Shown here in pieces: positions 2,075 through 19,752 of a stretch of DNA of 64,000 nucleotides. The stretch lies in contig JAFRRS010000013.1 in assembly GCA_017427985.1 (NCBI GenBank), forward strand, positions 4,565 to 68,564. Reading direction: 5' to 3'. The notes under the pieces were generated by a model. It had not been told where the DNA came from and ran no database searches. It was given only the letters and a program-made list of their open reading frames with translations. Numbering within the stretch: position 1 is the stretch's first letter; every line of letters begins with the position of its first letter. Origin of the DNA: Bacteroidales bacterium. Its GTDB lineage: Bacteria; Bacteroidota; Bacteroidia; Bacteroidales; F082. A program made the translations under genes and the position numbers.

Positions 2075-2109
2075 AACTTCTAACTAAAAACTCCTAACTT
2101 CTAACTAAT
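2075..2109. repeat. heptanucleotide-periodic spacer AACTTCT AACTAAA AACTCCT AACTTCT AACTAAT
   Basis: Five consecutive 7-nt units were read directly. They fill the gap between the stop of the 610-aa gene (2105) and the serS leader. Confidence 0.8.
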
Positions 2110-4020: not shown

Positions 4021-4575
4021 TCAGAATCCGTAATCGGCTTGTTCCTCGGCAGCGATTAGGAAGTCGTCCTCGTTCGGAAGGACGTATGTTTTTGGTGTCT
4101 TGGAGCAGGTTTTGAGGAAATAATCATGCAGTTGTATCTCGACTTTCTGCATTGTAGATTCGATTTTTGAAGGAGTGAGCCGGCATTCCCAGATGACAAT
4201 CACCTGCCAGCCGTTGTCCTGCAAAACCTGATAATTTTGTCTGTCCCGCTCCTGGTTTCTGCGTATTTTATTAATCCAAAACTCGCGGTTAGTATTCGGA
4301 ATCTTACAGCAATCCGAGTTCACAACTTCCAACTTCTCATTCCTAACTTCTAACTCGACATCGTGTCCGTGCCAGAAGCATCCGTTGACGAAAATCGCCG
4401 TGCGGTAGCGTCTCATCACGATATCAGGTTTTCCTGGAACTCCTTTAACATTAAGGCGATAGCGGTATCCGTGTTGCCACAGCCATTTGCGAACAAGCAA
4501 TTCCGGCTTCGTGTCGCGAGAATGGATGTGCGACATGCATAGGTGGCGTTGGGTGGGGGTCATTTTGTCGGTCAT
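4021..4575 (-). CDS. vsr: very-short-patch repair endonuclease (Vsr) carrying an extra ~16-aa segment
   Basis: Vsr hallmarks are present: SRDTKPEL, GKPDIV, NGCFWHGH ... PNTNREFW..KI..N..RD ... VIVIWECRL. Its start shares 1 nt with the stop of the upstream nuclease gene. Confidence 0.85.
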   Translation of the reverse strand: MTDKMTPTQRHLCMSHIHSRDTKPELLVRKWLWQHGYRYRLNVKGVPGKPDIVMRRYRTAIFVNGCFWHGHDVELEVRNEKLEVVNSDCCKIPNTNREFWINKIRRNQERDRQNYQVLQDNGWQVIVIWECRLTPSKIESTMQKVEIQLHDYFLKTCSKTPKTYVLPNEDDFLIAAEEQADYGF

Positions 4576-6794
4576 TATACAATGTATTTCATCAACTCGT
4601 CTCCTGTTTCGAAGATAGGTGTTCCATCTATGTAATCAGGTAATAATTTGGCGTCCGTAATTATGTCATGAAGACTAATTCTTGTCGAAAGCTGTACCTC
4701 TTCATCAAAGACGTAACATAAATAATTGCCTTGAGGATTTGGATATAATGCTTTTTTCATTCTTTCTTCATCCAATGTAGCATGATGATGAACATGAAAA
4801 ACGCGATATCCTTTGTTTTCAGCATTATATTCATAAAGGATTACGAATTTAACATCCAAACTTGCCAGATAAGTGGGTGATAAAGCACCGTCACGAACAT
4901 CGCTTCCGCGTTTCTTCAAGCGGACATTGTAAAGGTTGGTTCCTTTGTCGTTTTTGCCCATAATCCAATCCAGTTGTTCCTTCGAATGGTAGCAGCCAAT
5001 GAGGAAATGCTGGGTTGGATAGCGTTGAATATGGTGAGTGGTGAGCAGTGACACAGGTTGTATTGCTCTTTCAGGTTGAACAACGGTTGGCAAAACAGTT
5101 CGAGGGTCTTGTCCTAACGAACATTGTTTGCAATAAAAGCCTGTATCAACCAGATTTAGAATATACTCGTTCTCATCATTGTATTTTTTGTCTTTGTCGA
5201 GTGCGAGTGCAAAATACTGTTGTGTATCTGGAATATCATAAGGAGTGTAAACCTTTCCCAACAATTGTTGGAAATTATCTTTTATGAATTCCTCCGCATT
5301 GATTTCTTCACGTGGTGTCATGGCATAGAAATCATACTGCTCTTGGAGAACTTTTTTGATGTTTTCTCGAAATATCTTTCTGATTTCTTGTGTGCGCTCA
5401 CCGGCTCCCAGTACGTAACATGCAAGCACGAAAAGGAAATTGATATTATACGTCTGAAGGATTAGTGTGTCACGGTCAAAGAGTCGATTCTCAAAATGGT
5501 ACGAAATCCTGTGGCTCTTACCATCAATCATCTTCTCCAGTTGTAAATTGGCATTGCTGTAGTTGTTCAGTTGCTCGGCTTGCAGATGTCCGCGAATAAA
5601 GAAATTGGGCGTGATGTTGTAGCCTTCGGTCGTGTTGTCCCGGTATTGCAGGTTTGTCCGCTCAAACGCTTCTGGATCCTGATTAAAGAAATCGATATTG
5701 TATTGGATTACGTTCTTGGCGTACGTGAATTGTTTGTAAATGGAGTCCGGACCAATATCATTGTCATCCTTATAGTATTTGCTGTCACCGATGAAATAGA
5801 TTTGCTTTTTGTCTTCAATCAATGAATTGTCACGATAGATATGGTCGATGATCTTGCCGTCTTTATGTTTCTTAAGTCTATGATCCAGATTGTTGTCGCC
5901 GATGAGCGAGTCGATCATGTCCTCGAACACAAGGTTGAACTCACGAACAAGCATCGCCTGTTCATCCTGATTGTCTTTGCTTTGGACGTATTGGGATTGC
6001 TCGAAAAACGTAAAGAGCAAGTTCCAAAGCTGCACCATCTCATCCGTGAAATACTTACGTCGGTTCTGCCTGAGGACACGTACACCTTTGCCACTTTCTA
6101 TCATGGATTGGATATTTTCGGGTTTGAGCAGCTCATACCCAAAAGCAGGACGGACATTGAACTTGAATTCTTGTGCCAAATAGTTCAATACCGAGTAAAA
6201 TAGCACTATCAGTTCTTCATCAAAATTGATGTCTTTTTGTTTGGTGTGCGGATTGAGATACACTGGAACTCCGTTTTGAATCAGTGCCTTGGTCTTTGAG
6301 ATGGTTTTCTGCCAGTGTATCTTGTTTTGTCCGGAGTGCTTGAGACGGGTAATATAAGTAAATAGGCTCTTGTGTTCCTTGTCGAATTTCAAGAGTGAAA
6401 GGACAATGTCTATCATCGTTTCATTACTCGGACCTTGGTGGGAAACCACGTTTTGCATGATCTCCGCTTCGTCACTTGCCTTGTCCTTGCGTTGAAAATA
6501 GAGTTTAATGGCTCGATATATCCACACGGAAAGACTGAAGACGTTGGCCTTGTGCTCCTGTTTGAGATTGTCAAAATCGATTATCTCTTCCAGTTCATAT
6601 TCGCCGAAGGCTTTCCCGTAAATGATAAACACTTTCGGCAGAATAAACACCGTATCAGGGATTTTGCGCGAAAGGAAATAACCGACATAGGGTATCTTGG
6701 CTTTCCCATCGCGCATCTCCGTGAAATAGTGCGGGTCGAGTATGATGCTCAACCTGTCTTTATCATAGCCGTATTGCTCTATCAGTATCTTCAT
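4575..6794 (-). CDS. McrC-like / LlaJI R2-type restriction endonuclease subunit
   Basis: 739 aa, with a 4-nt ATGA overlap to the upstream McrB-like gene. It has a PD-(D/E)xK-type segment IYFIGDSKYYKD (D-x-K-Y as in McrC). The large size and gene order match LlaJI-type R2 proteins, as far as I remember them. Confidence 0.65.
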   Translation of the reverse strand: MKILIEQYGYDKDRLSIILDPHYFTEMRDGKAKIPYVGYFLSRKIPDTVFILPKVFIIYGKAFGEYELEEIIDFDNLKQEHKANVFSLSVWIYRAIKLYFQRKDKASDEAEIMQNVVSHQGPSNETMIDIVLSLLKFDKEHKSLFTYITRLKHSGQNKIHWQKTISKTKALIQNGVPVYLNPHTKQKDINFDEELIVLFYSVLNYLAQEFKFNVRPAFGYELLKPENIQSMIESGKGVRVLRQNRRKYFTDEMVQLWNLLFTFFEQSQYVQSKDNQDEQAMLVREFNLVFEDMIDSLIGDNNLDHRLKKHKDGKIIDHIYRDNSLIEDKKQIYFIGDSKYYKDDNDIGPDSIYKQFTYAKNVIQYNIDFFNQDPEAFERTNLQYRDNTTEGYNITPNFFIRGHLQAEQLNNYSNANLQLEKMIDGKSHRISYHFENRLFDRDTLILQTYNINFLFVLACYVLGAGERTQEIRKIFRENIKKVLQEQYDFYAMTPREEINAEEFIKDNFQQLLGKVYTPYDIPDTQQYFALALDKDKKYNDENEYILNLVDTGFYCKQCSLGQDPRTVLPTVVQPERAIQPVSLLTTHHIQRYPTQHFLIGCYHSKEQLDWIMGKNDKGTNLYNVRLKKRGSDVRDGALSPTYLASLDVKFVILYEYNAENKGYRVFHVHHHATLDEERMKKALYPNPQGNYLCYVFDEEVQLSTRISLHDIITDAKLLPDYIDGTPIFETGDELMKYIV

Positions 6795-8470
6795 TTAGAG
6801 GAAACGCCCAAGTAATCCATGAATTGTTGTAAGGTCTGCGTTGCTGCTTCTTCATACAAGTCTTTGAATATGAATTTGCTTGTCTGCTCTTTGTCGTCAA
6901 TGGTTGTTTTCTTGTAGAAGAAGTATTTGTTGTTCTCCGTTTCGTCACGCAGCACTTCATACCAAAGATAGAACATCACCTTGCTCTTGAATTCCTTTTC
7001 ATCCACAGAGTGCTTGATAAAGAAGTTTCCCAATTGTTTGTCCTCGCTCTGGGTGAGGTCAAAAATCCTCTTGTTGGCTTCTTTTATAAAGTCAACCCAG
7101 GGATAAGCCTTGTCTCCGATGGTTATTTCAAATGTGCCTGACTTGATATCAGTAGCATAGTTAATAGGGACATACTCCCATTCCCAACGGCGTTTAAACG
7201 CGCTGTCCATGGGAAACAGGCTTTGATCGGAGGTATTCATGGTGGCGAGAATATTCAGGTTAGCGGGCAAGCAGAGTTTTCCGTCTTTAATGCCTTCTGA
7301 ATCCTCTCCCAATTTGTCTATGAGATAGTTTGCCAAGTCTTTGTCTGCTTTGATTTTGTATTCAGAAACTCCACCTTTTCTGTCCAACAGTTGGAATAAG
7401 TCGCCGAAGATTTGTGCGCAGTTCCCGCGGTTGATTTCTTCAATGACGAGATAGGTTTGCTCTGTTGAATGGGTGTAAGCATAAATGTAGGCGTCTGTAA
7501 AGGCTTGCGGAACGAATTCATACACAATCTCCTCATCTTTGCCGGTCAAGGTCTTTTCCTCTTTGGACGTCGGTTTCATGGTAGGCTTGTAGCATCCCAC
7601 AAAAGAAGCATAATCCGTATCCGGATGGAAAGTTGTACGGAAAACATTGGGCAAATCTCTTTCTTCACCACTGTCTAATAGTTCCCCTGTTTGTTTCTTT
7701 ACTTCGTGGCTTTTGCCTGTGCCTGGGGCACCGAAGAAGATTTGCTGGAGAGGAGAATCTATCTTTGTTGTTTTCATGATAGATGGATTGTTAATAGTGT
7801 TAAATAGAGAATGAATATCGACATTAATTAATTGGCATACATCTTCATCAAACTCAACATAAGATGTGTCCGCTTGGTTAACATCATTAGTATAAATCGC
7901 ATCACAATAATCTGAAGTAAATAATGTATTCAGCGCACTTTTTATACCGTCCATATTCTCTTCAGGAATCTGTTTAAATCGAAGAAGCCAAACAATAAAA
8001 GCCAATCTTAACTCAGAAGAACCCAAATAAAAAGAAAAGCAATCATTTAGGTAATCACCCCGATATATTAACACTTGGTCTTGAATGTCCATGACAGGCT
8101 TCCACCCTGAACGTTTGGGGTATAAAAAAGTATTGTATGGGTTTGTTTTTGAATCTTTTACAGATGATTGGGAATAGAAATTGCTGCCACAATCAAAGTC
8201 TCTCCCATTTTGAGAAATACTCAAGAAAAAGTCTTTTGTGCAGTAGTCTTCATTAATTTTCACTATCTCTCCGACATGTGATGCAAATTCATCTCTATTG
8301 GCGGATAGTTTCAAATCGCAATTCTGGCTGTGATTTTTATAAAATAAGTCCAGAGCCGATGCGTATTTTAAGGCACTGACTTTTTGTGTAAGTCCTTGCT
8401 GTTTTTCAGAATCTATGCCAGAAAGCAACTTATAAGCATGTAATACTGTTGATTTTGCCAAATATGCCAT
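6791..8470 (-). CDS. McrB-family AAA+ GTPase (LlaJI R1-type) with an unassigned ~235-aa N-terminal domain
   Basis: Walker A FFGAPGTGKSH is present, along with EEINRGNCAQIFGDLFQLLDR. The McrB signature MNTSDQSLFPMDSAFKRRWEWEYV is also there. Confidence 0.8.
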   Translation of the reverse strand: MAYLAKSTVLHAYKLLSGIDSEKQQGLTQKVSALKYASALDLFYKNHSQNCDLKLSANRDEFASHVGEIVKINEDYCTKDFFLSISQNGRDFDCGSNFYSQSSVKDSKTNPYNTFLYPKRSGWKPVMDIQDQVLIYRGDYLNDCFSFYLGSSELRLAFIVWLLRFKQIPEENMDGIKSALNTLFTSDYCDAIYTNDVNQADTSYVEFDEDVCQLINVDIHSLFNTINNPSIMKTTKIDSPLQQIFFGAPGTGKSHEVKKQTGELLDSGEERDLPNVFRTTFHPDTDYASFVGCYKPTMKPTSKEEKTLTGKDEEIVYEFVPQAFTDAYIYAYTHSTEQTYLVIEEINRGNCAQIFGDLFQLLDRKGGVSEYKIKADKDLANYLIDKLGEDSEGIKDGKLCLPANLNILATMNTSDQSLFPMDSAFKRRWEWEYVPINYATDIKSGTFEITIGDKAYPWVDFIKEANKRIFDLTQSEDKQLGNFFIKHSVDEKEFKSKVMFYLWYEVLRDETENNKYFFYKKTTIDDKEQTSKFIFKDLYEEAATQTLQQFMDYLGVSSK

Positions 8471-8472
8471 AA

Positions 8473-9687
8473 CTATTTCTTTTTAACTTGTATATGATTC
8501 AATAAAGCCATTGCAACGACCCATGCCATAACGGGAGGAACGGCATTCCCTATTACTTTATATTGTGATTGTAGAGGTATTGCATTAAATCTAAAATTAT
8601 CTGGGAAAGATTGAATTCTTGCACATTCTCGTACCGAGTAACGCCTGTTTTCTACAGGATGTGTAATGCCACAATTTTCTGGCTGTGCAGAAGCTGTGAT
8701 GGTACCATTTATTTCACCAAAAGCAAAACGTCTGAAAAATTTCGGTGCATGATATTTCTTGGGATCATCCGCTATTTTCTTAAAACGAGGTGATAGTTTT
8801 TCGTATGGAATATCCTTCCACGAACGTCCTTCAAAAACAACAGAAGGTAATTCATTTTTGGAATACCCTTCATGAAACAATTCCATAGCCTTTTGTCCAT
8901 GTTTGCAGCCGCCAATTAATTCAACAGTATTTTGAGTAGTAACACTATATTCCCAGACGACATCGTCATTTTGTTCATGAACCCCCTGTAATATCCGACC
9001 CAAAAGAAGTTCTTCGTCTTTCCCTGTTAATGTTGACGGAACATTGTTCTTTTGAACCACTTTTAATAATAAATTGAAATCGAATGGCTTCAAATTCAAT
9101 TGCTTATCAATGCCAATTATGAGAACTCTGTATCTTTGTTGTGGAACGCCATAATCACTTGAGCAGACGAGTTTTATGCTTACATCGTAGCCCAACGCTT
9201 CCATTCTGTTTTGGATTTCCTGTGGGACTGTCCTTTCCCCGTCTGGCATTTTCGAAGAGAGAATACCTCTGACATTTTCAAACAAAAATGCCTTAGGGCG
9301 TTTATTTTCATCCGCCTTGGCTCGTATAATTCGTTCACATTCTTCAAACAAGGTTCCTCTCCCATTGGCATCATTAACGCCTTTTCTGCTTCCTGCATTA
9401 GAAAATGGTTGGCAAGGGAATCCTGCAAGCAAAATATCAAAATCTGGAATTTGTTTTGCATCCACATTTCGAATGTCTTCCAACAGACACTTTGCGCCAT
9501 CGTTCACTAATAAAGGATTTGCATTATAACACTTACACGCATCAATATCAAAGTCGTTTGCAAACACAATTTTTGTATTCAATCGTTTATAATCTTTCCC
9601 TAAAAAGGAAAAACCTCCTGCAAAGCCTAAATCAAGACCCCCGCAACCGGAAAAAAGGGATGCAATTTTATATTTTTTCTTGGACAT
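8473..9687 (-). CDS. DNA (cytosine-5)-methyltransferase (MTase 2)
   Basis: Motifs read: I LFSGCGGLDLGF, IV GFPCQPFS, VI FENVRGI, VIII QQRYRVLIIG, IX SVRECARIQSFPD, X IGNAVPP. Confidence 0.9.
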   Translation of the reverse strand: MSKKKYKIASLFSGCGGLDLGFAGGFSFLGKDYKRLNTKIVFANDFDIDACKCYNANPLLVNDGAKCLLEDIRNVDAKQIPDFDILLAGFPCQPFSNAGSRKGVNDANGRGTLFEECERIIRAKADENKRPKAFLFENVRGILSSKMPDGERTVPQEIQNRMEALGYDVSIKLVCSSDYGVPQQRYRVLIIGIDKQLNLKPFDFNLLLKVVQKNNVPSTLTGKDEELLLGRILQGVHEQNDDVVWEYSVTTQNTVELIGGCKHGQKAMELFHEGYSKNELPSVVFEGRSWKDIPYEKLSPRFKKIADDPKKYHAPKFFRRFAFGEINGTITASAQPENCGITHPVENRRYSVRECARIQSFPDNFRFNAIPLQSQYKVIGNAVPPVMAWVVAMALLNHIQVKKK

Positions 9688-9733
9688 AATTATTTGCCTT
9701 TTTTGCTAACTTTAAATTGTTGTATCACAACTT

Positions 9734-10642
9734 CTATTTCAGTAATTTGGAGAAAACGTCTGAATACTTAAGAATATTCTTTCTGATCTCCTTGATATCT
9801 TCATCATTAAAAGTTTTATCTCCTTTTTTCGTTATAAGAACTTCCTTCCCTTCCACTACTTTACTTACACAATGTGCCAATTGATTCCTGATTTCAACAA
9901 TTTCTGCCATATAGTCTTCAAAGAAGTTCGCGCGAGTAGGAGAATATAATTCTTTTGGGATTATATAGTTAACAGCTTTCGCCATTTGGGCTGATTCCAT
10001 ATTAGGTATTACTTCTTGTATCGGTATGCTTTTCCATTTGTGATAGCAAACCTTCTCCTTTTTACCACATCCATCCAAAGCATTCTTTATTCTTTCTTCT
10101 TGTTTTCTTGTTATATGATCGTGAAAAGTTTTTATTAGAATGTCTGTCTCATTCTGGACATAATATTTGTTTATCAAATCTAACATTATACCATCTAATT
10201 CGCTCACTTCAGCCATCACGAGCCCACGTAAATTATTCAAATCTTGAACTTTTCGAATGGTTGTCTGAATAACTACTTTTATCTTGTTTAAAAACAAGTC
10301 TTTATCTCGCCCCGAAAAATAGACACCTTCCAAATCCAAAGCTTGAGCTTTTTGTTTGATCTTTTGAAGCCCATCGGCAGAATAGAACACAACATCCGTA
10401 TAAATTTCTTTGTCTCGGATATTTTTTATCAGTAAATCTCCCGAAGGTTCGGTTTCAAGGTTTAAATCCATTAAAATGAGATCGTAGTTATTATATTGGA
10501 TTGTATCATCTTGTTTGGAATACAAATCCCAATTTAATACCAAACCATAGTCTCCTTCAACAATCTCTTTAAGATCGTCTTCTATGGATTCAGCCCAATC
10601 CGAATCATTTTCAACCCAAAGTATCTGATATTTTAATCTCAT
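9734..10642 (-). CDS. receiver (REC)-like protein with a C-terminal helical HEPN-like domain (R252-N-Q-L-A-H257)
   Basis: The N-terminus reads ILWVENDSD ... DLILMD59LNL ... VVFYS88A, which fits a CheY-like fold. The C-terminal ~160 aa is all-helical and carries RNQLAH (nt 9872-9889). A 2-nt gap separates it from the upstream kinase-like gene. Confidence 0.55.
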   Translation of the reverse strand: MRLKYQILWVENDSDWAESIEDDLKEIVEGDYGLVLNWDLYSKQDDTIQYNNYDLILMDLNLETEPSGDLLIKNIRDKEIYTDVVFYSADGLQKIKQKAQALDLEGVYFSGRDKDLFLNKIKVVIQTTIRKVQDLNNLRGLVMAEVSELDGIMLDLINKYYVQNETDILIKTFHDHITRKQEERIKNALDGCGKKEKVCYHKWKSIPIQEVIPNMESAQMAKAVNYIIPKELYSPTRANFFEDYMAEIVEIRNQLAHCVSKVVEGKEVLITKKGDKTFNDEDIKEIRKNILKYSDVFSKLLK

Positions 10643-10644
10643 AT

Positions 10645-13218
10645 TCAGAATATTATATCTAATTTTAACCCTTTTCCTTTGTTATTGTTTTGAGAACGAT
10701 AGGCCGTATCAATAGAAATAGAGCCTTTCAATTCTTTTTCAACAAACATTTTAGCATTAAACAACCCCAACCCAGATCCTGACGTTGTAGTTACTCCTTT
10801 CTCGAAAATATCCTGTTGATTTTCTAAACTATTTGCAATGCCATGTCCATCATCAAAAATGCTCATTTCAATTTGACTGCCCTTTTGAGAAAACACAACA
10901 TTGAAATGACGAGCTCCGGCTTTGATGGAATTAGAAAGAAGATTGTCAATTAATAGGTTTAACTCTAAAGGACGAAACTTCATAATGCGTTTGCAATTGT
11001 TTGTTTTACAAATGAGATTAATTTCTTCGTAATAATCCGGAAGCACGGATGTCAAATACTGATTTACAAACTCCACAATATCTGCGTCCAAAGATTCTCC
11101 TTCCACGTTAAAATTGGCTTTTGTGGCAAATCTTGAAATGGACAGCACCTTTCTATTTGCCTTGGAAATACGCTCCAACGCTTTAGTGAGATTACCTTTA
11201 TCTATTGTACCCTTATACAACTGTTTGATGATACTGTCCAAAGAATTCTGGATCGTATGCGCATTCAATCTGATATCGTGATGATACTTGATAATTCTAT
11301 CTTTATCGAGATTATCTACCGATTGCAGGAAAAGATTTTGTTTTGTTTTTTGATCAAGTTTTTTCTCTGCTTTTTTTCTCTTTTCTTCTTCCTCTTTTCT
11401 TTTCTGTTCAGCTTCTTTACGAAGCAATTCTTCTTCCCGTCTTTTAAGCTCTGCTTCTTTTGCTTGCAATTCTGCTTTTCGTTTTGCCTCGGCTTCTTCC
11501 TCTTTTTTCCTCTCTGCCTCTATTCTTTTAATTGTTTCTTCTTGGGCTTTGCGTTCAGATTCCTCTCTCTTTTTCTCCGCTTCGATGGCTCTTTGTTCAG
11601 CTTCCTCTTTTTCTTTTCTGAGTTTTCTTATATGTTGTTTTGCTTCGTCGATGCTCAGAAGCATATTTTCATCATTTGTGCTTTCAGCGATTTTCTCAAG
11701 ATCGTTGAGAAATTGAGGTTTTATGTTGTCAATCTCTTCTGGATCAGACAGAATATTTGCAAGATCTTTGTTGTAAGAGACGATTTCAACATTTTTATCA
11801 CGAGTAAGGGTTTTTATGAGTTGAATAAAATCTATCTTACTTCCAATGCTTGAATTAATCAAATAATTGGGATTGTCGTTCTCCTTATCATTTTCGAGTA
11901 GTTCTTTTCTTCTTTCCAGAGCTTCATTGGCATCTTTAAAATATTCTTTTTTCAAAAAAGCTTCGCCCCAAAGCACACCAGAAACATATCTCTCCAATCT
12001 TCTATGAGCAACTTCGAAAAGATTAAAAAGTTGTTGTGAAGTTTGGGTTTCAATCAATCCTCCATCGCGACTTGACACCTCCTTCAGTTCCTCAACATTA
12101 TCTGTCAAGACATCAACCCTGCCAAACAAATCACGTGTTCCAAGAAAACGATTATGTCCTTGTTGTGCACGGTAATCGAGCCCCCAGCTGTCATCTCCGG
12201 TATTGCCAAATGGCATTATCCTAAATCCATTTCTGAATAAAAAAACCGAACCATAATTAACAGGTTCAATGCCCATTAATCTGGTAAAATTATTTTTTGC
12301 AGAACGGTTTAGGAAATAGAGATTGATACTAACATCCTTCAGTTTGTCAAAAGAATTGTTTTTCTCATGAATAGTGTACATCTCGACCCCGCGATCGGTA
12401 AGTGTTGTGGTAATGTGATCGGGAGACAATTTCACATCTATCTGGGTCGTTTTTAGATCAAGAATGCTTGTTATACTATTTTTTAAAATCCCATTGACCA
12501 ACTCTCTTTCGTGTTTGCCTTTCTCAATACAACTCTTATCCTCAGCGAGCTCTCTATTGCACTTTATTTCGATGCCGAAATCACTCGTTTCCGCAAAAGG
12601 ATTGATTAATTTTTCAAGAGAATGCTTGAGATCCAATAAACGTTTCCTGTTCCAAGGCATTTTTTCATCATTCAGCCTTTTAATCTCAAGAATAGTTCCG
12701 TGTGTCTCTTTTTCAGGAAAAATCGCATTAGAAGTAGTTAAGGTATCGTGTCCTACATTAACATTAGCAAATTCTAAATTCTGGTCAATTTCGAAATCGG
12801 TCCAATCAACTTGAATAATTTCAAGCGTGTTTGAAGAAACACTTTTTGTCTTTAGTAATAATTCTTTGCCCAATCGATCACATGAAAAACGCCCAATACC
12901 TTTGGCTCCCGCATAATGACGCCTGATTTTATCTCTATATGATGTTTGTTTGTCATCTGAATCGTTATCTTCAGTACCATCCTTCTTAGCTGAGTACCCT
13001 AAAAAAAGCCATTTCTTTTTTATATCTTTTAAAGACATTCCCTTGCCATTATCTGCAATAATAATTTTGTCGTCAAGGAATTCTATTTCCACTTTTTTTG
13101 CGTAAGCATCATAGGCATTTTTCACCAACTCAAATATGGCCACATTATCATTGATAATTAAATCTTTACCAACAAGATCTTTTAAAGCCGAACTAATTTT
13201 AAACTGCAGCTGTTCCAT
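10645..13218 (-). CDS. dual-GHKL protein: N-terminal MORC/MutL/Hsp90-class ATPase, E/K/R-rich helix, C-terminal histidine-kinase core
   Basis: N-terminal motifs: ELVKNAYDA, ADNGKGM, GAKGIGRFS. Residues 531-622 are almost pure E/K/R/A/Q. The H-box-like segment is YHHDIRLNAHTI (aa 645-656). The kinase core has N-box DNLLSNSIKA, G1 DDGHGI and G2 GSGLGL. No TM segment or signal peptide is present. Confidence 0.65.
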   Translation of the reverse strand: MEQLQFKISSALKDLVGKDLIINDNVAIFELVKNAYDAYAKKVEIEFLDDKIIIADNGKGMSLKDIKKKWLFLGYSAKKDGTEDNDSDDKQTSYRDKIRRHYAGAKGIGRFSCDRLGKELLLKTKSVSSNTLEIIQVDWTDFEIDQNLEFANVNVGHDTLTTSNAIFPEKETHGTILEIKRLNDEKMPWNRKRLLDLKHSLEKLINPFAETSDFGIEIKCNRELAEDKSCIEKGKHERELVNGILKNSITSILDLKTTQIDVKLSPDHITTTLTDRGVEMYTIHEKNNSFDKLKDVSINLYFLNRSAKNNFTRLMGIEPVNYGSVFLFRNGFRIMPFGNTGDDSWGLDYRAQQGHNRFLGTRDLFGRVDVLTDNVEELKEVSSRDGGLIETQTSQQLFNLFEVAHRRLERYVSGVLWGEAFLKKEYFKDANEALERRKELLENDKENDNPNYLINSSIGSKIDFIQLIKTLTRDKNVEIVSYNKDLANILSDPEEIDNIKPQFLNDLEKIAESTNDENMLLSIDEAKQHIRKLRKEKEEAEQRAIEAEKKREESERKAQEETIKRIEAERKKEEEAEAKRKAELQAKEAELKRREEELLRKEAEQKRKEEEEKRKKAEKKLDQKTKQNLFLQSVDNLDKDRIIKYHHDIRLNAHTIQNSLDSIIKQLYKGTIDKGNLTKALERISKANRKVLSISRFATKANFNVEGESLDADIVEFVNQYLTSVLPDYYEEINLICKTNNCKRIMKFRPLELNLLIDNLLSNSIKAGARHFNVVFSQKGSQIEMSIFDDGHGIANSLENQQDIFEKGVTTTSGSGLGLFNAKMFVEKELKGSISIDTAYRSQNNNKGKGLKLDIIF

Positions 13219-14494
13219 GTTGTAGCATATTTAATAAAACTTCCCCCGCCAATTCCGCAAATAAAGGCGGAATGGCATTCCCAATTTGGGTGTAACGGGG
13301 TACTTCCAACTTGCGCATCTTGCCGCCAGTGGTATATTTCTTTTTAATCTCATACCAATCGGGAAACGATTGGATACGGGCACATTCACGAACGGTCATG
13401 ATGCGAGGTTCTGAATAGTGCAAATAGTCATCTGGACTGCCGGTAATGGTCGGAGAGACCACATTGGAATCCAAAATGGTGATGCCACGCTGCTTGATGC
13501 CCCATTGCTCACGTGTCTCTCCGTCAATTCGTTTGCCACGTTGCGGATATTCAGATAGCAAGCGTTTGTAGCAATTGATTTTATCTGGTGTTTGTTTGGC
13601 AAAACTGTGGCTATCTGCTATTCCATGCGTTTCTGGATAGTCGCCTCGCATCAACTTTTGGTATGCCGTCGGTTTCTTCTTGCCATATTTTCCGGAATAA
13701 AAGCCTTTGCGATCTGGTGTGGGTTCTTCTCCGTTGGATCGAAGCAAGTCAGAAATTGCGTCCTGCAAAGTGTTGGTGGACTTTAAGCCTTTTTGCGCCA
13801 GAAACGCATCTCGATTGGCTTTTAACAAACCTTCGAAACAATCAGGCGTTCCTAACTCTTTTCGAATTCCAACAAGAATAAAACGCTTGCGACGTTGAGG
13901 GACACCATACTCTGAAAAATCAATCACATGTGGTTTCACATTGTAACCCAAATCTCCCAACCCACGAATCACTTTGAGGGAATAGGGTTCATTCTCGGAA
14001 GAAGCCGATTTCCCTTTGTCGAAAGCATAAGTGAAGCCTTTCACATTCTCAAAAAGGATCATTTTAGGTCTAACTAAGTCGATGAATTTTATATATGAAA
14101 ACACCAACTGGTTTCTTACATCTTCTTCAACACGTTTGCCAGCCATAGAAAAACCTTGGCAAGGCGGTCCGCCAGCCACTAAGTCCACGTTCCCACGCAA
14201 AGATTTCAGTTGCTCCGAATACTTTTCCAATACCTCGTTGATGTCGTGTTCGGTTTTAGGCAGCCATTCCGGCCAATCAAAGTGGTTCTTGTTATCAATA
14301 AGGTTGTATTTTAATGTTTCAAAAGCAAATGCGTTTTTCTCAATAGCGAACAAGCCATGCCATCCCGATTGATAAAGCCCCAAAGACAAACCTCCACAAC
14401 CCGCAAATAGATCTATTACCGTACGAAACGCCAACTGTTTTCCCTTTTCAACAGAAGACAACTTATTATTACTCTTATAGTTAGCGTTTTTCAT
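13199..14494 (-). CDS. DNA (cytosine-5)-methyltransferase (MTase 1)
   Basis: Motifs read: I DLFAGCGGLSLG, IV GGPPCQGFS, VI FENVKGF, VIII QRRKRFILVG, IX TVRECARIQSFPD, X IGNAIPP. The stop overlaps the start of the kinase-like gene by 20 nt. Confidence 0.9.
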   Translation of the reverse strand: MKNANYKSNNKLSSVEKGKQLAFRTVIDLFAGCGGLSLGLYQSGWHGLFAIEKNAFAFETLKYNLIDNKNHFDWPEWLPKTEHDINEVLEKYSEQLKSLRGNVDLVAGGPPCQGFSMAGKRVEEDVRNQLVFSYIKFIDLVRPKMILFENVKGFTYAFDKGKSASSENEPYSLKVIRGLGDLGYNVKPHVIDFSEYGVPQRRKRFILVGIRKELGTPDCFEGLLKANRDAFLAQKGLKSTNTLQDAISDLLRSNGEEPTPDRKGFYSGKYGKKKPTAYQKLMRGDYPETHGIADSHSFAKQTPDKINCYKRLLSEYPQRGKRIDGETREQWGIKQRGITILDSNVVSPTITGSPDDYLHYSEPRIMTVRECARIQSFPDWYEIKKKYTTGGKMRKLEVPRYTQIGNAIPPLFAELAGEVLLNMLQHGTAAV

Positions 14495-14526: not shown

Positions 14527-14534
14527 CAAATATA
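14527..14534 (-). promoter_or_regulatory. Bacteroidota -7 box (TATATTTG) for the defence-island operon
   Basis: The reverse complement of CAAATATA matches TAnnTTTG. It lies 32 nt upstream of the ATG at 14494. Confidence 0.45.
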
Positions 14535-14594: not shown

Positions 14595-14623
14595 AAAAAA
14601 AGCCGACGAGTTTCCTCATCGGC
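14595..14623 (-). terminator. rho-independent terminator of rplU-rpmA
   Basis: The minus-strand RNA reads GCCGAUGAG-GAAA-CUCGUCGGC followed by U7. Confidence 0.75.
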
Positions 14624-14672
14624 CTATTTTTCTGTTCGTTTCCAATTGGGCGAATATGATTCGCCCCTACGC

Positions 14673-15366: not shown

Positions 15367-18300
15367 TTATCTCACCACAATTTTTTGTGTTTGTTCGTTT
15401 AATTTCAAAATGTATACGCCAGTTTGTAAAGACGTTTCAGGAAACGTCTCCACCCCATTTACGCGCCTGCTTGCAATCATGCGCCCCATCACATCGAAGA
15501 TTTGCAGCTCGCCTTCGCCTGTGATAATTATTTCAGCACCATTTTGATAGGCAAAATGCCCCTGCAGAGACGCAAAATTTTGCGTCTCTGCAAACACGAT
15601 TATAAACCTTTCTTGTCTATCGGTTGGCGAACCGATGAAGGTGTAGCGGTTGTTTTCGGTTAAATCAACAACAACATCTTCTAATCTATCGATTAATTTT
15701 ATGTCCGGTAGAGACGTTTCCTGAAACGTCTCACCCAAACGCGAAAAATAAGACGTTTCAGGAAACGTCTCTACGGAAATGGTATATTGTCCCATTTCTT
15801 TCGCCTTGAAATTCAGCGGAATCTCGCCCTGGCGGCTGCTAGAAACCATAGCGTAATCCTTGCCGTCTTGCGGGACGTATAATTTTGTGCTGCCGTCGAA
15901 GACCTGCAATTTCTCCATTGTTTTCTTGCTGTCGAAACGCACTATTGCGCGGTCGATGACGCTGCCACGGTTTCCTTTGCTGAGGTTGATGACTACCTGT
16001 CCTGATTCAGATTTTTGACCGCTGCCTTTGCCTGGCGCTTCGGTGGTGAATGTCAGCGTCTCACCGTCTTCGTCCGCGTGAACGAAGATGCCTTCCATAG
16101 CTTCAACATGGTAATCAGCGCGTTCAGCGAGTACAATTTCGCTGCCGTCGTCGTTCATAACATAGAAATCGCGGTCGATGTAAGCCGTTTCAGCAAACGG
16201 GTTGCCCACGAGGTTCCAGCCTTCCATTTCAGCACCCGGTGTCTTGGTGAGGGTGACCGTACCATCACCGCTGTAATGCTCGCCGTTGAAGGTGAGCGTC
16301 ACATCTTCGCTGTTGGCATAGAGATAGCCTCTTCCCTGCTCAAGGTCGAAATGATAGTGGTCGGATTCATCTGCCTTCCAGTTTTCCCATTCCGCATCGG
16401 CGGCTTGGTTGAAGCGGTATAGGTCGTAGGTGTTTTTGGTGAGGCCATTCACATCTGTTGGGAAGACGTCATTAGCCAAAGGCGAAGCGATGAGGTTCCA
16501 GCCGTCATTGCCATCGGGAGTGTAATGTGCTATGTCGAGAGTGACTGTTTGTTGGGATTCAACTTTCTTGTAAAGCGAAAACGATCCGCCAGTATTTGTT
16601 GTAGAGCAATCGAAACCTATGATCTGTCCGTAAGTATTGTGATATCTAAGATAAGGATAGCTTCCACCGCACCTGAAATCGTAAACGGATGTCCCCTCCA
16701 CCGTCCAGAGACCAAAGCCATCGTTATGGTCATTTGCATTTTCAACTAAATCAACCTTGTAGCAAAAATAATATGCTGCGTATTTTTGGGCTTCAGCGCT
16801 GTAGATAGTCCAACGGTCGTCATTTGGGGCGATGTGCCAAACAATGTCTGTTTGGTCTGTAGTAATCACGTCATCAATCGCAGTAACATTCGTATATTGG
16901 AATACACGGTTCATTAACATGCTGCTCATGGCAGCGCCATCTTTTACAATCAGATAGTCGCCTTCAACAAGGTCTCCGCTGAATAGTTCATAATGGTCAC
17001 CAGTTGGAGTGCCAGGCTCCACAGTGGCACTGACAGTCACGTTGGCATCGGGCATCACGAAGGAAAAAACGCCGTTGTCAGGCTCGATGTTGTAGTCGTT
17101 GCCGCCGTAAGAGAGGGTGGCTGAGGTGAGCTTATAGCCTTCTTGTGCGCCCAGCGTGACGGTATATCCGACACTGCTATAGATGTAGGTGGTATTGCCG
17201 TCGTTATATTTAATGGCATGGTTGCCAAAGCCGATGGCGGTAATGCCGCTCACGTTGTAGATGGTTTCCTCGCCTTTGAGGATGACGCCCTCGCCGAGAG
17301 TGATGGTGCGGGCGCGGCGAGCGCCGTCAATGTCGTTGCCCCTTACACCGCCAGGCACTATGGCACTGGTGGTGTTGTAGTAGTTGTTGGTGTAAAAGCA
17401 CTGATACATGTTACCGCCAATTATTGCGCCACTACTCTCATCGGAGATGACGGCAGTGCCGGTGTAAAGGCAGTTACAGACGATGGTATAGCAATCGTTG
17501 TTATAGAGTTCCGTGTTGTTGCCTACGATGCCGCCATACAAACGGCTAGCCGTTGACTCCACTCTGTTTTCGATGACGGTAGCGCCACTGACACATCCGA
17601 CCACTGAGCCCAGGTTATAGCCCGCGATGCCGGCGTGGCGAGGTGAAACGTCACCACCGGCATAGATGTTGACGCTATTCTCCACGCGGCAGTTATAAAT
17701 GATCCCTGTGTTGAGACCCACGATGCCGCCAACACTAGCTCTCCCAGCGAAGGTACAGTCGGTGAGGGCAACGTTCCTAACGGTAGCCGTAGTGTTATCG
17801 GTATCATAACCAATACGGCCGAAAAGACCGACATTTTCGTCGTTCCAGTTAACCCAGATGCCGCTTATGGTGTGGCCGCCGCCGTCATAAACGCCATTGA
17901 AAGTGTTTGCTAATTGGCGTCCGATTGGGACGTAGTTGTTTTCTGTGCCGTCATAAACCAGGTCGACTGTCTGGAGGAAGAACTTGTCGCTGTAATCGTT
18001 GCCTTCATTGACCTTGGTTGCCAGCCTATCCAAATCAAGGGTTGTTCTTATCAGGAAGGGGCTTTCAGCGGTACCATCACCGCTCCATGGGGCAATTTCG
18101 ATGATGGCTGTAACGGTGACATCCTTGTCGGGCATGTCGAAGGTGTAAACGCCGGCAGTTTCGGTTACAGCGACATCGTTGTTGTTTGAATCTTTCACGC
18201 TGAAACCGGCAAATGCGTAGTCATCGGGTGCAGTGCCGGTGTAATCGAGGGTTAGCGTCTGTGTGGCGCCGCTGAAGATAGGGTTGTTGCTACGACGCAT

Positions 18301-19752
18301 GGCGTAGTTGCCTGTGCCGATTGCGATGATAGCACTGACATTGTAAACGGTCGGGTCGCCCACAATGACGACATCCTCGCCAAGATTGACGGTACGGGCA
18401 CGGCGCGCGCCGTCCACGTCGCTGCTGTTGACGCCGCCGAGGTTGATGTTGTTATAATAGTTGTTGGTGAGATTAGAGCCTGCATTATAACCCGTGATAG
18501 AGCCGATTTTGTCGTCGCCGGTGACAATGGAACCGGTATAGAGGCAATTCTCTATAGTGCCTTCGTCGTTTTTGCCCACTATGCCACCGAAGTACTCGCA
18601 GCCACTCTTGCCATTATTGCTGACAGCAGCGCCGCTGAAGCAGCCGATGACTTTGGCATCGCTGGTATAATTATAACCAACTATTCCACCGTGGTACAAA
18701 GCATTACTGTGTCCGGCATGGATGACAACGCTGTTATTCACGCGGCAGTTCTGCACTGTGGTGAAACCACTTGCATTTCCATTGGAGAAACCAACGATAC
18801 CGCCAACATAATTATATCCCGTGAAGGTGCTGCTGGCAAGGATAACGTTTCGCACAGTGCCGGCAGAAATGCATCCGAAGAGACCGACACTACTGTCGGC
18901 ATCGGTGTTTCCAGTACGGTTGACAGTGATATTGCGGATGTAGCGTCCCTGACCATCGTAGGTGCCAGAGAAACAGGCAAAGTCATTTTCGTTATTGTAA
19001 TAGCCGATAGGGACGTACGTGTCATCACAATTGATGTCCTGTGTCTGCAAGAAAGAGAGGTTTTCACAGTCGTTATTACCGATATTGACGTATGAGGCGA
19101 GCACGGCGAGGTCGCGCTTCGACGTGATGTTATAAGTGTTGGCACTCGGACTGGTGAGCAGGGTAATAGGCGCCAAATCGGTGTAGGTAATTGCAATCCT
19201 GCCAAACGAGCTCCTCGAATTGAAACTCTCCTGCAACTGGTAGGCGTAGTCGAATGACGGATTCATGGGATGGTGGTTAATGTCGCTCATGCCGGTATTG
19301 CCTTCGTTGTTCAACATCTCGATTTTAGTGACAAAATAACGTCCACTGCCGCCGGTAACGGTGTAGGTGATGTATTTGTCTATACTCGGGGCATTGATGT
19401 TGATGCCACCTTGATTGCTGATTATTGCATTGCTGCCTGCCTCCCACTGTAAACGCAGGGTGAAGCCGTCGCTGAAGCTGACAGTGTAGTCGCCTGCACC
19501 ATTGCTCCCTCCCCCGTTATTGAGCGAACTCTCGTCGATATTCATCCAGTATAAGTTCTCATAGCCGTCAAATGGCATGTCGCTGCCATCGGCGCGGGAG
19601 AAGCCAACTTCATAGCAGTGGTAGTTTTGGTTGTAGTTCGCACTGCTGATTCTGTAAATCACGGTTTTGGTAGTAGCTTGTGCTATCTGCCCAAAAGCGA
19701 CTGCCATCACAAGCAGCAACGCTGCAAAAACTCTTGTGTATAAAGTCTTCAT
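15367..19752 (-). CDS. T9SS-sorted GLUG-repeat surface protein (1461 aa)
   Basis: Signal peptide MKTLYTRVFAALLLVMAVAFGQ. There are two GLUG-type modules (VGGIVG...NC...GGIVG). The T9SS-type C-terminus reads ...LQIFDVMGRMI...GVYILKLNEQTQKIVVR. Confidence 0.8.
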   Translation of the reverse strand: MKTLYTRVFAALLLVMAVAFGQIAQATTKTVIYRISSANYNQNYHCYEVGFSRADGSDMPFDGYENLYWMNIDESSLNNGGGSNGAGDYTVSFSDGFTLRLQWEAGSNAIISNQGGININAPSIDKYITYTVTGGSGRYFVTKIEMLNNEGNTGMSDINHHPMNPSFDYAYQLQESFNSRSSFGRIAITYTDLAPITLLTSPSANTYNITSKRDLAVLASYVNIGNNDCENLSFLQTQDINCDDTYVPIGYYNNENDFACFSGTYDGQGRYIRNITVNRTGNTDADSSVGLFGCISAGTVRNVILASSTFTGYNYVGGIVGFSNGNASGFTTVQNCRVNNSVVIHAGHSNALYHGGIVGYNYTSDAKVIGCFSGAAVSNNGKSGCEYFGGIVGKNDEGTIENCLYTGSIVTGDDKIGSITGYNAGSNLTNNYYNNINLGGVNSSDVDGARRARTVNLGEDVVIVGDPTVYNVSAIIAIGTGNYAMRRSNNPIFSGATQTLTLDYTGTAPDDYAFAGFSVKDSNNNDVAVTETAGVYTFDMPDKDVTVTAIIEIAPWSGDGTAESPFLIRTTLDLDRLATKVNEGNDYSDKFFLQTVDLVYDGTENNYVPIGRQLANTFNGVYDGGGHTISGIWVNWNDENVGLFGRIGYDTDNTTATVRNVALTDCTFAGRASVGGIVGLNTGIIYNCRVENSVNIYAGGDVSPRHAGIAGYNLGSVVGCVSGATVIENRVESTASRLYGGIVGNNTELYNNDCYTIVCNCLYTGTAVISDESSGAIIGGNMYQCFYTNNYYNTTSAIVPGGVRGNDIDGARRARTITLGEGVILKGEETIYNVSGITAIGFGNHAIKYNDGNTTYIYSSVGYTVTLGAQEGYKLTSATLSYGGNDYNIEPDNGVFSFVMPDANVTVSATVEPGTPTGDHYELFSGDLVEGDYLIVKDGAAMSSMLMNRVFQYTNVTAIDDVITTDQTDIVWHIAPNDDRWTIYSAEAQKYAAYYFCYKVDLVENANDHNDGFGLWTVEGTSVYDFRCGGSYPYLRYHNTYGQIIGFDCSTTNTGGSFSLYKKVESQQTVTLDIAHYTPDGNDGWNLIASPLANDVFPTDVNGLTKNTYDLYRFNQAADAEWENWKADESDHYHFDLEQGRGYLYANSEDVTLTFNGEHYSGDGTVTLTKTPGAEMEGWNLVGNPFAETAYIDRDFYVMNDDGSEIVLAERADYHVEAMEGIFVHADEDGETLTFTTEAPGKGSGQKSESGQVVINLSKGNRGSVIDRAIVRFDSKKTMEKLQVFDGSTKLYVPQDGKDYAMVSSSRQGEIPLNFKAKEMGQYTISVETFPETSYFSRLGETFQETSLPDIKLIDRLEDVVVDLTENNRYTFIGSPTDRQERFIIVFAETQNFASLQGHFAYQNGAEIIITGEGELQIFDVMGRMIASRRVNGVETFPETSLQTGVYILKLNEQTQKIVVR
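15430..15449. repeat. GAGACG-family hairpin H1 (AGACGTTTC-ag-GAAACGTCT)
   Basis: 9-bp stem with a 2-nt loop, inside the CDS. It encodes ..VETFPETS.. in the sorting domain. Confidence 0.9.
15563..15592. repeat. GAGACG-family hairpin H2, a 30-bp perfect palindrome TGCAGAGACGCAAAA|TTTTGCGTCTCTGCA
   Basis: Read directly. It encodes AETQNFASLQ and is identical to H6. Confidence 0.95.
15711..15732. repeat. GAGACG-family hairpin H3 (GAGACGTTTC-ct-GAAACGTCTC)
   Basis: 10-bp stem. The left flank is GTA, as in the GTAGAGACG consensus. Confidence 0.9.
15751..15770. repeat. GAGACG-family hairpin H4 (AGACGTTTC-ag-GAAACGTCT)
   Basis: 9-bp stem with right flank CTAC. It lies 18 nt from H3. Together the two encode VETFPETSYFSRLGETFQETS. 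Confidence 0.9.

Follow-up and report, generated by a model that had tools for sequence, protein, structure and literature searches.

What kind of system is formed by a cytosine DNA methyltransferase, a soluble histidine kinase and a receiver protein that are encoded back to back at the head of an array of restriction-modification (R-M) genes? The question is raised by a stretch of 64,000 nt from the genome of a Bacteroidales bacterium (F082; assembly GCA_017427985.1, contig JAFRRS010000013.1, positions 4,565-68,564, forward strand). This whole stretch is referred to below as the window, and all coordinates are given within it unless a locus is named. Seven genes are packed on its minus strand at positions 4021-14494, with successive junctions of -20, +2, +46, +2, -4 and -1 nt. 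The first three encode a C5 cytosine methyltransferase (Dcm1), a kinase with two GHKL-type ATPase domains, and a protein composed of a receiver (REC) domain and a probable HEPN RNase domain; they are designated here as the trio. An earlier note on this DNA, based on the sequence alone, had interpreted the trio as a phosphorelay cassette wedged into a McrBC/LlaJI-type restriction operon, and as a candidate for an undescribed defence system.

In this work, domain annotation, structure prediction and comparison of gene neighbourhoods were applied to the array. The genes of the trio are translationally coupled and have been co-inherited as one unit in many phyla. Very likely, they make up a two-component conflict system that is autonomous, linked to a methylase and equipped with a toxic effector. 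The best explanation of the combined evidence is that the trio is horizontally mobile and follows the logic of R-M systems, the restriction arm being a phosphorelay that ends in an RNase.

Conservation and autonomy of the trio

Relatives of the kinase were collected by scanning one genome per species in a set of 185,579 species genomes, which yielded at least 525 sequences; the locus comparisons described here cover the 80 loci that were kept from them. A Dcm1 orthologue is located directly upstream of the kinase gene in 76 of the 80 loci (phmmer E-values from 1e-56 to 1e-235, intergenic distances from -26 to +9 nt). Among the other four, two carry Dcm1 on the opposite strand less than 1 kb away (L070 and L075), and two end at a contig edge (L068 and L071). 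The kinase gene is followed by a partner gene in every locus that is not cut off, the partner being a REC-HEPN protein in 54 loci and a short REC protein in 19. The hosts belong to the Bacteroidota, Spirochaetota, Campylobacterota, Verrucomicrobiota, Fibrobacter, Paenibacillus, Pseudomonas and the Alphaproteobacteria, as well as to candidate phyla radiation bacteria and the methanogenic archaea of the genus Methanimicrococcus. Because the same coupled gene order recurs in dozens of loci from many phyla, the trio is not a chance arrangement, and the conserved methyltransferase-kinase-receiver neighbourhood asked about in the earlier note exists.

The Dcm-kinase core was also detected on 9 viral contigs from IMG/VR, 6 of which have a detectable REC-HEPN partner. 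On one IMG/VR contig (L096:7989-11972) the kinase gene is split into an N-terminal part at 7989-8996 and a C-terminal part at 10683-11972 with about 1.7 kb between them, possibly as the result of an insertion. The window had no match in E. coli genomes, phage records contained no match to the receiver protein, and plasmids yielded just distant N-terminal relatives.

The relationship of the trio to the four genes downstream of it was addressed by the same comparison. Canonical LlaJI systems have the composition M1-M2-R1-R2, with two methylases. The downstream genes of the array are similar in that they encode a second methyltransferase (Dcm2), an AAA_5 McrB-like protein and a RE_LlaJI-like protein, i.e. 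the R1/R2 layout together with at least one 5-methylcytosine methylase. All seven genes could constitute a single integrated system; in it, a LlaJI-type enzyme would have Dcm1 and Dcm2 as its M1 and M2 components, and the kinase and receiver would have been inserted as an abortive infection (Abi) layer that depends on, or controls, the McrB/LlaJI nuclease. The presence of two methylases in canonical LlaJI agrees with this interpretation, as does the likely organization of the array as a single operon read from a promoter-like motif at 14534-14527, with neither a terminator nor a -7 motif before Dcm2. Moreover, 8 of the 80 loci, from gut and rumen Bacteroidales and Treponema, share with the window the order of the trio, one or more Dcm genes and a McrB-like gene, all on one strand; 3 of these 8 have a LlaJI-like match too.

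However, McrB/LlaJI-like genes were found within 10 kb in only about 10 of the 80 loci, and Dcm1 orthologues accompany the kinase and receiver genes in the remaining ~90% of loci, where such genes are lacking; in Campylobacter, for instance, the trio stands alone beside guaA. In three loci (L015, L017 and L018) the LlaJI-like module possesses two Dcm genes of its own in addition to Dcm1, whereas the module in the window contains one methylase only. Dcm2 is lacking from most of the trio loci. The closest genome relative, a sheep-rumen Bacteroidales metagenome-assembled genome (MAG), has a trio that is 73% identical at the DNA level; Dcm2 and residues 1-237 of the McrB-like protein are missing from it, and the LlaJI-like gene has been kept (L005:13491-17275 compared with window positions 4575-9792). 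The R-M module there seems to be undergoing decay, with the trio beside it intact. The seven-gene interpretation is therefore highly unlikely. Since a Dcm gene lies upstream of the kinase in 76 of the 80 loci and McrB/LlaJI genes are near in about 10, the gene neighbourhoods indicate that the trio is autonomous, that Dcm1 is its own methylase, and that the LlaJI-like genes, an R-M module of the conventional kind, are a separate and separable neighbour. The trio is not a LlaJI component and mostly occurs without LlaJI, so the proposed wedging into a LlaJI operon is not supported.

Dcm1 and the dual-GHKL kinase

Dcm1 is a full-length C5 methyltransferase, which matches positions 2-319 of the 324-position profile PF00145 with an E-value of 1e-56 and TIGR00675 with an E-value of 6e-46. 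Its target-recognition region was tested for hypervariability and proved to be just moderately variable, which is uninformative.

The kinase combines two GHKL domains with a conserved middle region and a helical linker (Table 1), and the two-GHKL architecture is present in thousands of kinase homologues. The N-terminal GHKL domain has weak matches in the PDB to PMS1, MutL and MORC3, and its Bergerat-fold residues E30, N34, D56, G58, G60, G104, G107 and G109 are invariant in 74 sequences. Residues 16-190 also match the BbrUII/HgiDII restriction enzyme family (NF050001; E-value 1e-18); the similarity is confined to the N-terminal GHKL part, reaching 67 bits against a cut-off of 550, covering the first 175 of 659 profile positions and including no nuclease part. 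The second ATP-binding domain was recognized as HATPase_c (PF02518, residues 751-841, 1e-18), and a profile built from 18 kinase homologues matched the DHp and CA domains of ZraS (2e-11), SrrB (6e-10) and HK853 (1e-9) in the PDB over residues ~623-849. The candidate phospho-acceptor is H647 (codon 11278-11280), which pairs with the H-box histidine in the SrrB alignment; the register of the ZraS alignment is off by one heptad. In the kinase core, H647 is invariant in the 74 sequences, as are D758, N763, G816 and G818 of the ATP lid, and H646 varies. Since neither GHKL domain shows any variation in its catalytic residues, both ATP sites of the kinase look active.

The middle region is among the best conserved parts of the kinase, and just the blocks of the N-terminal GHKL domain score higher. 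No Pfam family and no PDB sequence matched it; it could be an S5/transducer-like or DNA-clamp module. The linker is kept across the homologues, and its sequence is poorly conserved. It resembles one long charged helix or coiled coil, and matches to TolA and Mitofilin that it produced were spurious. Both the kinase and its receiver partner are predicted to be soluble, since no 19-residue window in either reaches the hydropathy of a membrane helix (maxima of 0.88 and 1.01, respectively).

Pfam, NCBIfam, PADLOC and hydropathy analyses thus agree with the earlier description of a complete C5 methyltransferase followed by a soluble dual-GHKL kinase. The three minus-strand open reading frames were recovered as previously delimited, with an overlap of 20 nt between the Dcm1 and kinase genes and a gap of 2 nt between the kinase and receiver genes. 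The quoted motifs were all located at the residues assigned to them, namely HHD at 646, the N box at 758, G1 at 789 and G2 at 814 in the kinase, and LMDLN with D59 and RNQLAH at 252-257 in the receiver protein.

Receiver domain and the predicted phosphorelay

An AlphaFold2 model of the full receiver protein, built with 29 homologues, has a pLDDT confidence score of 85. Foldseek searches with this model against the PDB retrieved only REC domains, with target TM-scores of 0.6-0.8, which confirms the receiver-like N-terminus proposed earlier. The Pfam Response_reg profile stays below its cut-off in the window protein (24.5 bits versus 30.2). An alignment of 55 receivers shows no variation at W9, D54, D59 and Y87, and only Ser or Thr at position 88.

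Several residues deviate from the pattern expected for phosphotransfer and weigh against a functional relay. The second Mg-binding acidic residue, at position 12, is Asp in 50 of the 55 family members and is replaced by Asn in the window receiver and all 28 of its close homologues (E11-N12, positions 10607-10612). At the position after strand 5, where a Lys is usual, the window protein has R112 and the family (55 sequences) varies. In the kinase, the acidic residue following H647 is present in the window (D648) and is not conserved among the 74 sequences. N12 may alter metal binding and phosphorylation kinetics in the window clade, and phosphotransfer could be impaired there.

This deviation is relevant to another pair of interpretations, according to which the trio is either an addiction module or epigenetic switch, causing post-segregational killing when Dcm1 methylation is lost, or a degenerate phosphorelay with a pseudo-receiver controlled by binding. 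The replacement of the Mg-binding Asp by N12 speaks for such interpretations, as do the location of the system on mobile DNA of low GC content and its occurrence on some viral contigs; the strict linkage to a methylase is as compatible with addiction as with defence. Nevertheless, D59, H647 and the ATP-binding residues of the kinase are invariant even in the N12 clade, which argues that phosphotransfer has been kept; furthermore, addiction and defence are compatible in R-M systems, so that the addiction model differs in emphasis more than in mechanism. We regard these two interpretations together as unlikely. The conserved residues support the view that the kinase and receiver have the sequence features of a working histidine kinase/receiver pair. 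The phosphorelay proposed in the earlier note is thereby sustained at H647 (74 sequences) and D59 (55 sequences), and weakened at N12 and at the variable strand-5 position occupied by R112.

A probable HEPN RNase domain in the receiver protein

The receiver protein's C-terminal domain, modelled alone by AlphaFold2 (residues 136-302), gave a pLDDT of 91 and a pTM of 0.84. In domain numbering, the model contains helices at 2-28 and 32-53, an insert at 54-104, a helix at 105-121, a beta-hairpin and a helix at 145-166, and the RNxxAH motif occupies positions 117-122, at the end of helix 3. HEPN domains were described as four-helix up-down bundles with inserts between helices 2 and 3, an Rx4-6H motif where helix 3 ends, and a polar residue (N, D or H) directly after the Arg (Anantharaman et al. 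2013; PMC3710099). When the order of secondary structure elements in the model was compared with this description, the predicted helix order and the place of the motif fitted it.

Conservation of the motif points in the same direction. All 55 sequences aligned have R252, A256 and H257, and all but one have N253 (54 of 55); the equivalents of R252 and H257 are invariant in a 46-member alignment as well. R139, G140, E145, S147, D150 and R287 are also conserved among the 55 sequences. An acidic Ex3[KR] motif in helix 2 (E182-x3-K186) is limited to close homologues, is not family-wide and was not used as evidence. In Pfam searches the window domain matched HEPN_RiboL-PSP (7e-4; 19.9 bits versus a cut-off of 28.4) and Abi_2 (0.018). 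Across the 46 C-terminal domains, HEPN_Swt1 was matched by 9, HEPN_RiboL-PSP by 7 (best E-value 1e-7) and HEPN_MAE_28990 by 5, making all three of the commonest families HEPN families; Abi_2 matched 2 more.

The following results argue against the assignment. The Pfam HEPN matches are mostly under the curated cut-offs, and in a 10-member sample a HEPN family was matched by only 3 proteins, with E-values of ~0.01-0.02. Foldseek searches of the PDB and BFVD with the C-terminal domain returned nothing at E <=0.001 and no HEPN structure, the HEPN toxin 5yep appearing in the list just at rank 44, at noise level. A sequence-profile search of the PDB with the domain family likewise returned no HEPN protein. 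On balance, we consider it likely that the domain is a HEPN domain: the earlier proposal retains the invariant R252, A256 and H257, the topology and the Pfam matches on its side, and the conservation of R252 and H257 on which it hinged is complete, while Foldseek lent it no support. The domain forms 134 clusters among 1.84 billion representative proteins. Because nearly all of these are about 300 residues long with the domain at ~136-305, it appears to be dedicated to the fusion with REC.

Sister variants with other partner proteins

The 19 loci with a short partner encode a REC-like protein of ~230 aa that lacks the RNxxAH motif. In 18 of them there is a fourth coupled gene, for a protein of ~220 aa with invariant GHG and SCxS motifs. 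The profile of this protein gave weak, consistent matches to the caspase large subunit (E-values of 0.15-0.9) in which both catalytic residues of the His/Cys dyad are aligned, and the protein is a candidate caspase-fold protease effector. Examples of the variant are L018:12517-13948, L044:12505-13879 and L086:8135-9462. The C-terminal core of the kinase co-varies with the type of partner (median 94 versus 60 bits; Mann-Whitney p = 1e-8), even though the short-partner group has the more similar N-terminus. Such a pattern is to be expected if cognate kinases and receivers are exchanged together.

The commonest Pfam families in the two genes after the trio are DNA_methylase, HNH_2, ResIII, DEAD, Vsr and Metallophos, mostly of R-M type, and other restriction-enzyme families rank next. 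HNH_2 genes adjoin some of the sister variants. In a distant relative on a Klebsiella variicola plasmid (L085; NZ_CP063918.1, 124171-137489), an N6 methylase is combined with a GHKL-kinase whose gene is frameshifted, a REC-like protein of 168 aa and an HNH protein, so the methylase-kinase theme does not depend on cytosine methylation. Defence systems typically swap their effectors, and the variants support a modular effector system.

The partner genes also bear on a purely regulatory role, in which an intracellular cue, e.g. nucleotide levels, would act through the receiver to control the neighbouring R-M genes, including Dcm1 and the LlaJI-like module, with no toxicity involved. A role of this kind was offered as speculation by Bellieny-Rabelo, Pretorius and Moleleki (2021; PMC8011034). 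The seven genes of the array are spaced tightly enough for one transcription unit, and R-M genes are the commonest neighbours of the trio. On the other hand, the receiver protein has no DNA-binding output domain in any library searched and carries an invariant RNase-type motif instead; there is usually no R-M nuclease beside the trio to be controlled; and the sister variants pair the kinase with a protease-like or HNH gene, which are effector-type partners. Regulation as the sole function is accordingly quite unlikely, and a toxic output of the trio is favoured.

Comparison with known systems

The trio belongs to a kind of system already described in silico in 2021. The study in question (PMC8011034) reported soluble kinases composed of HATPase_c_3, a new DHp domain (HEF_HK) and HATPase_c, 91.6% of which were linked to a response regulator-like (RR-like) gene with a Response_reg_2 domain; an upstream C5 methyltransferase and frequent Vsr and HNH_2 neighbours were noted, and descent from paraMORC proteins and a regulatory tie to R-M systems were proposed. 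The window kinase has the architecture of its 'group 1', being soluble with HATPase_c_3, a DHp with the core His, and HATPase_c. The adjacent RR-like gene with a conserved Asp, the upstream C5 methyltransferase and the Vsr and HNH_2 neighbours are shared too, as are the genera Bacteroides, Prevotella, Flavobacterium, Chryseobacterium and Pseudomonas. The kinase, the RR-like gene and the upstream methyltransferase being on record, the system cannot be called undescribed, as had been suggested. That study reports no further domain in the RR-like protein, no HEPN, no defence claim and no experiment, whereas here a HEPN RNase is the probable identity of this protein's C-terminal half, and the trio can be read as an effector system complete in itself; the new elements are the probable assignment of an RNase effector and the evidence for autonomy.

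The two Pfam models that correspond to the 2021 families, HEF_HK (PF19191) and Response_reg_2 (PF19192), had no match to the window proteins at E <=10 in searches run without a positive control. They also had no match (E <=0.01) in the relatives from Pseudomonas, Chryseobacterium, Paenibacillus, Stenotrophomonas, Rhizobium and Klebsiella, and none in 10 other family members or in precomputed Pfam annotations, a pattern for which a library or filter problem is a possible cause. Since neither model matched, the window proteins are not filed here under these families, a decision that is subject to the missing positive control.

Among experimentally studied systems, the closest in logic is Detocs (Rousset et al. 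2023; 10.1101/2023.01.24.525353), an anti-phage system of a kinase and REC-effector proteins that requires the kinase His and the receiver Asp. Both systems combine a cytoplasmic kinase with a receiver whose output is a toxic enzyme and not DNA binding, and effectors are swapped in both. Detocs acts by abortive infection, whereas the output of the trio is deduced from its domains. Moreover, Detocs has a TPR sensor in its kinase (DtcA), a buffer receiver (DtcB), mostly PNP ATP-nucleosidase effectors (DtcC) and no methylase, in contrast to the MORC-type GHKL sensor, the HEPN-like effector, the obligatory C5 methyltransferase and the absence of a buffer receiver in the trio. Neither a TPR domain (by Pfam) nor a third receiver gene was found in the array.

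GHKL ATPases of R-M systems were described as paraMORCs by Iyer et al. (2008; PMC2292703), and in VcSduA (paraMORC3/Shedu type I-D; PMC12137116) a GHKL module was shown experimentally to control a defence nuclease. The window kinase resembles paraMORCs in its N-terminal MutL/MORC GHKL domain with intact motifs, its conserved middle domain and its neighbourhoods rich in methylase and Vsr genes. Where paraMORC3 has a fused PD-(D/E)xK nuclease, the window kinase ends in a histidine kinase core, and its signal goes to an effector on another protein. The paraMORC label of the window kinase is based on its GHKL part, whereas (para)MORCs are defined by the S5 domain.

Several other systems were considered and dismissed as the same system: MADS, which has an N6-methylase and eight genes, and two systems from V. 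cholerae, namely WonAB, built on an OLD-ABC ATPase, and VcSduA, a GHKL-Shedu fusion. The HATPase/REC system of DefensePredictor was set aside as Detocs-like, judging by the abbreviations in the legend (TPR, HATPase and REC) and a mention of purine phosphorylase in the text. Pfam and NCBIfam contain no named system for the kinase or the receiver. No named-system model of PADLOC matched either protein beyond weak GHKL hits, in line with the earlier note, the inclusion of Detocs models in v2.0.0 being unconfirmed. Neither REC-HEPN fusions nor MORC-kinase fusions are present in the 2013 HEPN survey, the 2008 MORC paper or a 2020 eLife paper. The literature searched contained no paper in which HEPN, 'response regulator' and GHKL occur together, no REC-HEPN protein and no naming of the trio as a defence system.

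Locus boundaries and neighbouring genes

The features of the array and its upstream boundary are listed in Table 1. The array has a GC content of 34-42% compared with ~50% in its flanks, and forms a low-GC island between rpmA and serS. Upstream of it, translation of the sequence revealed L21/L27-like proteins (rplU and rpmA). The element TATATTTG is a candidate promoter of Dcm1. Its pattern, TAnnTTTG, is enriched in the whole window, with 71 matches versus 44 +/- 6 in shuffled sequences; matches are located just upstream of several gene starts, including serS, orf610 and Dcm1. The 46-nt spacer between the receiver gene and Dcm2 was found to contain neither a -7 motif nor a terminator, and for this reason the seven genes may form one transcript. 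The LlaJI-like/Vsr module is probably co-transcribed from the promoter of the trio and shares with it the repair function of Vsr, an enzyme for repair of the T:G mismatches that arise from deamination of 5-methylcytosine.

Table 1. Features of the trio, its neighbour module and its upstream boundary in the window
Feature	Positions	Strand	Details
Dcm1, full-length C5 cytosine DNA methyltransferase serving as modification gene in the trio	13199-14494	-	431 aa
Kinase, soluble paraMORC-type GHKL ATPase fused to histidine kinase	10645-13218	-	857 aa
Kinase, N-terminal GHKL ATPase (HATPase_c_3, MutL/MORC class), residues 25-146	12781-13146	-	PF13589, 6e-21
Kinase, strongly conserved middle region, residues ~150-510	11689-12771	-	D343 and R384 invariant (74 sequences)
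Kinase, Glu/Lys/Arg/Ala-rich helical linker, residues 515-632 (118 residues)	11323-11676	-	76% E, K, R, A or Q
Kinase, histidine kinase core, residues 635-857: DHp helix and CA domain (N, G1 and G2 boxes)	10648-11316	-	
Receiver protein (REC and probable HEPN)	9734-10642	-	302 aa
Receiver protein, REC domain, residues 1-133, candidate phospho-acceptor D59 (codon 10466-10468)	10244-10642	-	Foldseek TM up to 0.8
Receiver protein, C-terminal effector domain, residues 136-302, probable HEPN RNase	9737-10237	-	R252-N-Q-L-A-H257 at 9872-9889
Dcm2, second C5 methyltransferase, modification gene of the LlaJI-type module, not of the trio	8473-9687	-	404 aa; PF00145, 1e-67
McrB-like AAA_5 GTPase/ATPase, R1.LlaJI-like subunit, neighbour module	6791-8470	-	559 aa; PF07728, 1e-8; PADLOC REase_II, 2e-44
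LlaJI-like endonuclease subunit (R2-like), neighbour module	4575-6794	-	739 aa; PF09563 RE_LlaJI, 1e-5, 25.4 bits versus cut-off 23.6
Vsr very-short-patch repair endonuclease, last gene of the array	4021-4575	-	184 aa; PF03852, 9e-33; TIGR00632, 1e-41
Candidate Bacteroidota -7 promoter element TATATTTG	14527-14534	-	33 nt upstream of the Dcm1 start codon; matches TAnnTTTG
Strong intrinsic terminator closing rplU-rpmA, upstream limit of the low-GC island	14600-14625	-	11-bp stem, 6 G-C pairs, T-run

Downstream of the array lies an unrelated gene, orf610 (610 aa; 2105-3937), followed by serS. The product of orf610 had no match in Pfam, PADLOC, NCBIfam or the PDB, and no homologue of it was found in any related locus. 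Having a signal-peptide-like N-terminus, a TAnnTTTG motif of its own at 3976-3969 and no family match, it was dropped as a member of the system. Exact copies of all three trio proteins were found in one Bacteroidales MAG, whose public records label Dcm1 'DNA cytosine methyltransferase', the kinase 'ATP-binding protein' and the receiver protein 'hypothetical protein'.

Elsewhere in the window, a pair of paralogous YhcG/DUF1016 PD-(D/E)xK nuclease genes (30838-31866 and 36092-37204; E-values 5e-56 and 2e-52) flanks purL (32396-36091), both in low-GC patches of 34-37% GC. Two giant proteins of 1461 and 2333 aa are encoded at 15367-19752 and 20134-27135. They have sub-threshold matches to Por_Secre_tail, the type IX secretion C-terminal sorting domain (22.2 and 26.4 bits versus 27), and carry DUF285, GLUG and Listeria-Bacteroides repeats, consistent with a Bacteroidota chromosome.

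Proposed mechanism and implications

Based on these observations, the following chain of events can be proposed. Dcm1 would methylate the host genome and thereby mark self. The MORC/MutL-type GHKL ATPase, together with the middle region, would serve as a cytoplasmic DNA sensor that responds to unmethylated DNA, either foreign or newly unprotected, or to another infection cue. The signal would travel along the Glu/Lys-rich helix and induce autophosphorylation of the kinase core on H647, from which the phosphoryl group would be passed to D59 of the receiver. Dimerisation of the phosphorylated REC domains would then join two HEPN domains into a composite Rx4H RNase site, and the resulting cleavage of RNA would lead to growth arrest, as abortive infection or post-segregational killing.

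The dimerisation step has parallels elsewhere. HEPN RNases generally act as dimers, and in Ire1 and RNase L a HEPN-family RNase is activated by phosphorylation- or nucleotide-driven dimerisation of the attached signalling domain. The KEN domain of these two proteins is classed as HEPN (PMC3710099). They are eukaryotic fusions with Ser/Thr kinases or pseudokinases in one polypeptide, whereas the trio would use His-Asp transfer between two proteins; the analogy is one of mechanism only.

Further considerations count against this scheme as a whole. The target-recognition region of Dcm1 is moderately conserved across phyla, unlike the diversifying specificity of R-M systems; DNA binding and methylation reading by the MORC-like module, the nature of the trigger, and the sign of the signal, i.e. 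whether phosphorylation switches the effector on or off, are assumptions; and the literature searched contains no experimental evidence for any step of the mechanism. We therefore hold the complete chain, a methylation-gated phosphorelay that causes abortive infection, to be evenly poised between right and wrong. A more far-reaching version, in which DNA without the mark of the partner methylase is detected, and not cut, by a DNA-clamp ATPase of the MORC type and a His-Asp relay passes the signal to interchangeable toxic effectors, is tentative and rather doubtful. It is with the same reservation that the effectors of that version can be named: in the window, the HEPN RNase fused to REC; in the sister variants, either a protease resembling caspases or an HNH nuclease.

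For annotation, the analysis provides the RR-like protein of 2021 with a probable effector domain, and allows the trio to be treated as one unit with its own methylase. If the proposed mechanism is true, discrimination between self and non-self by methylation would be coupled to an RNA-targeting abortive output via a two-component phosphorelay, joining three subjects that are now studied apart, namely R-M systems, two-component systems with a defensive role (Detocs, for example) and the HEPN toxins of abortive infection. Detection without cutting, if true, would represent a new class of methylation-based immunity. The trio would also set a prokaryotic precedent for MORC proteins as readers of the DNA methylation state, and would offer a tractable bacterial system in which to study what MORC-type GHKL ATPases sense on DNA.

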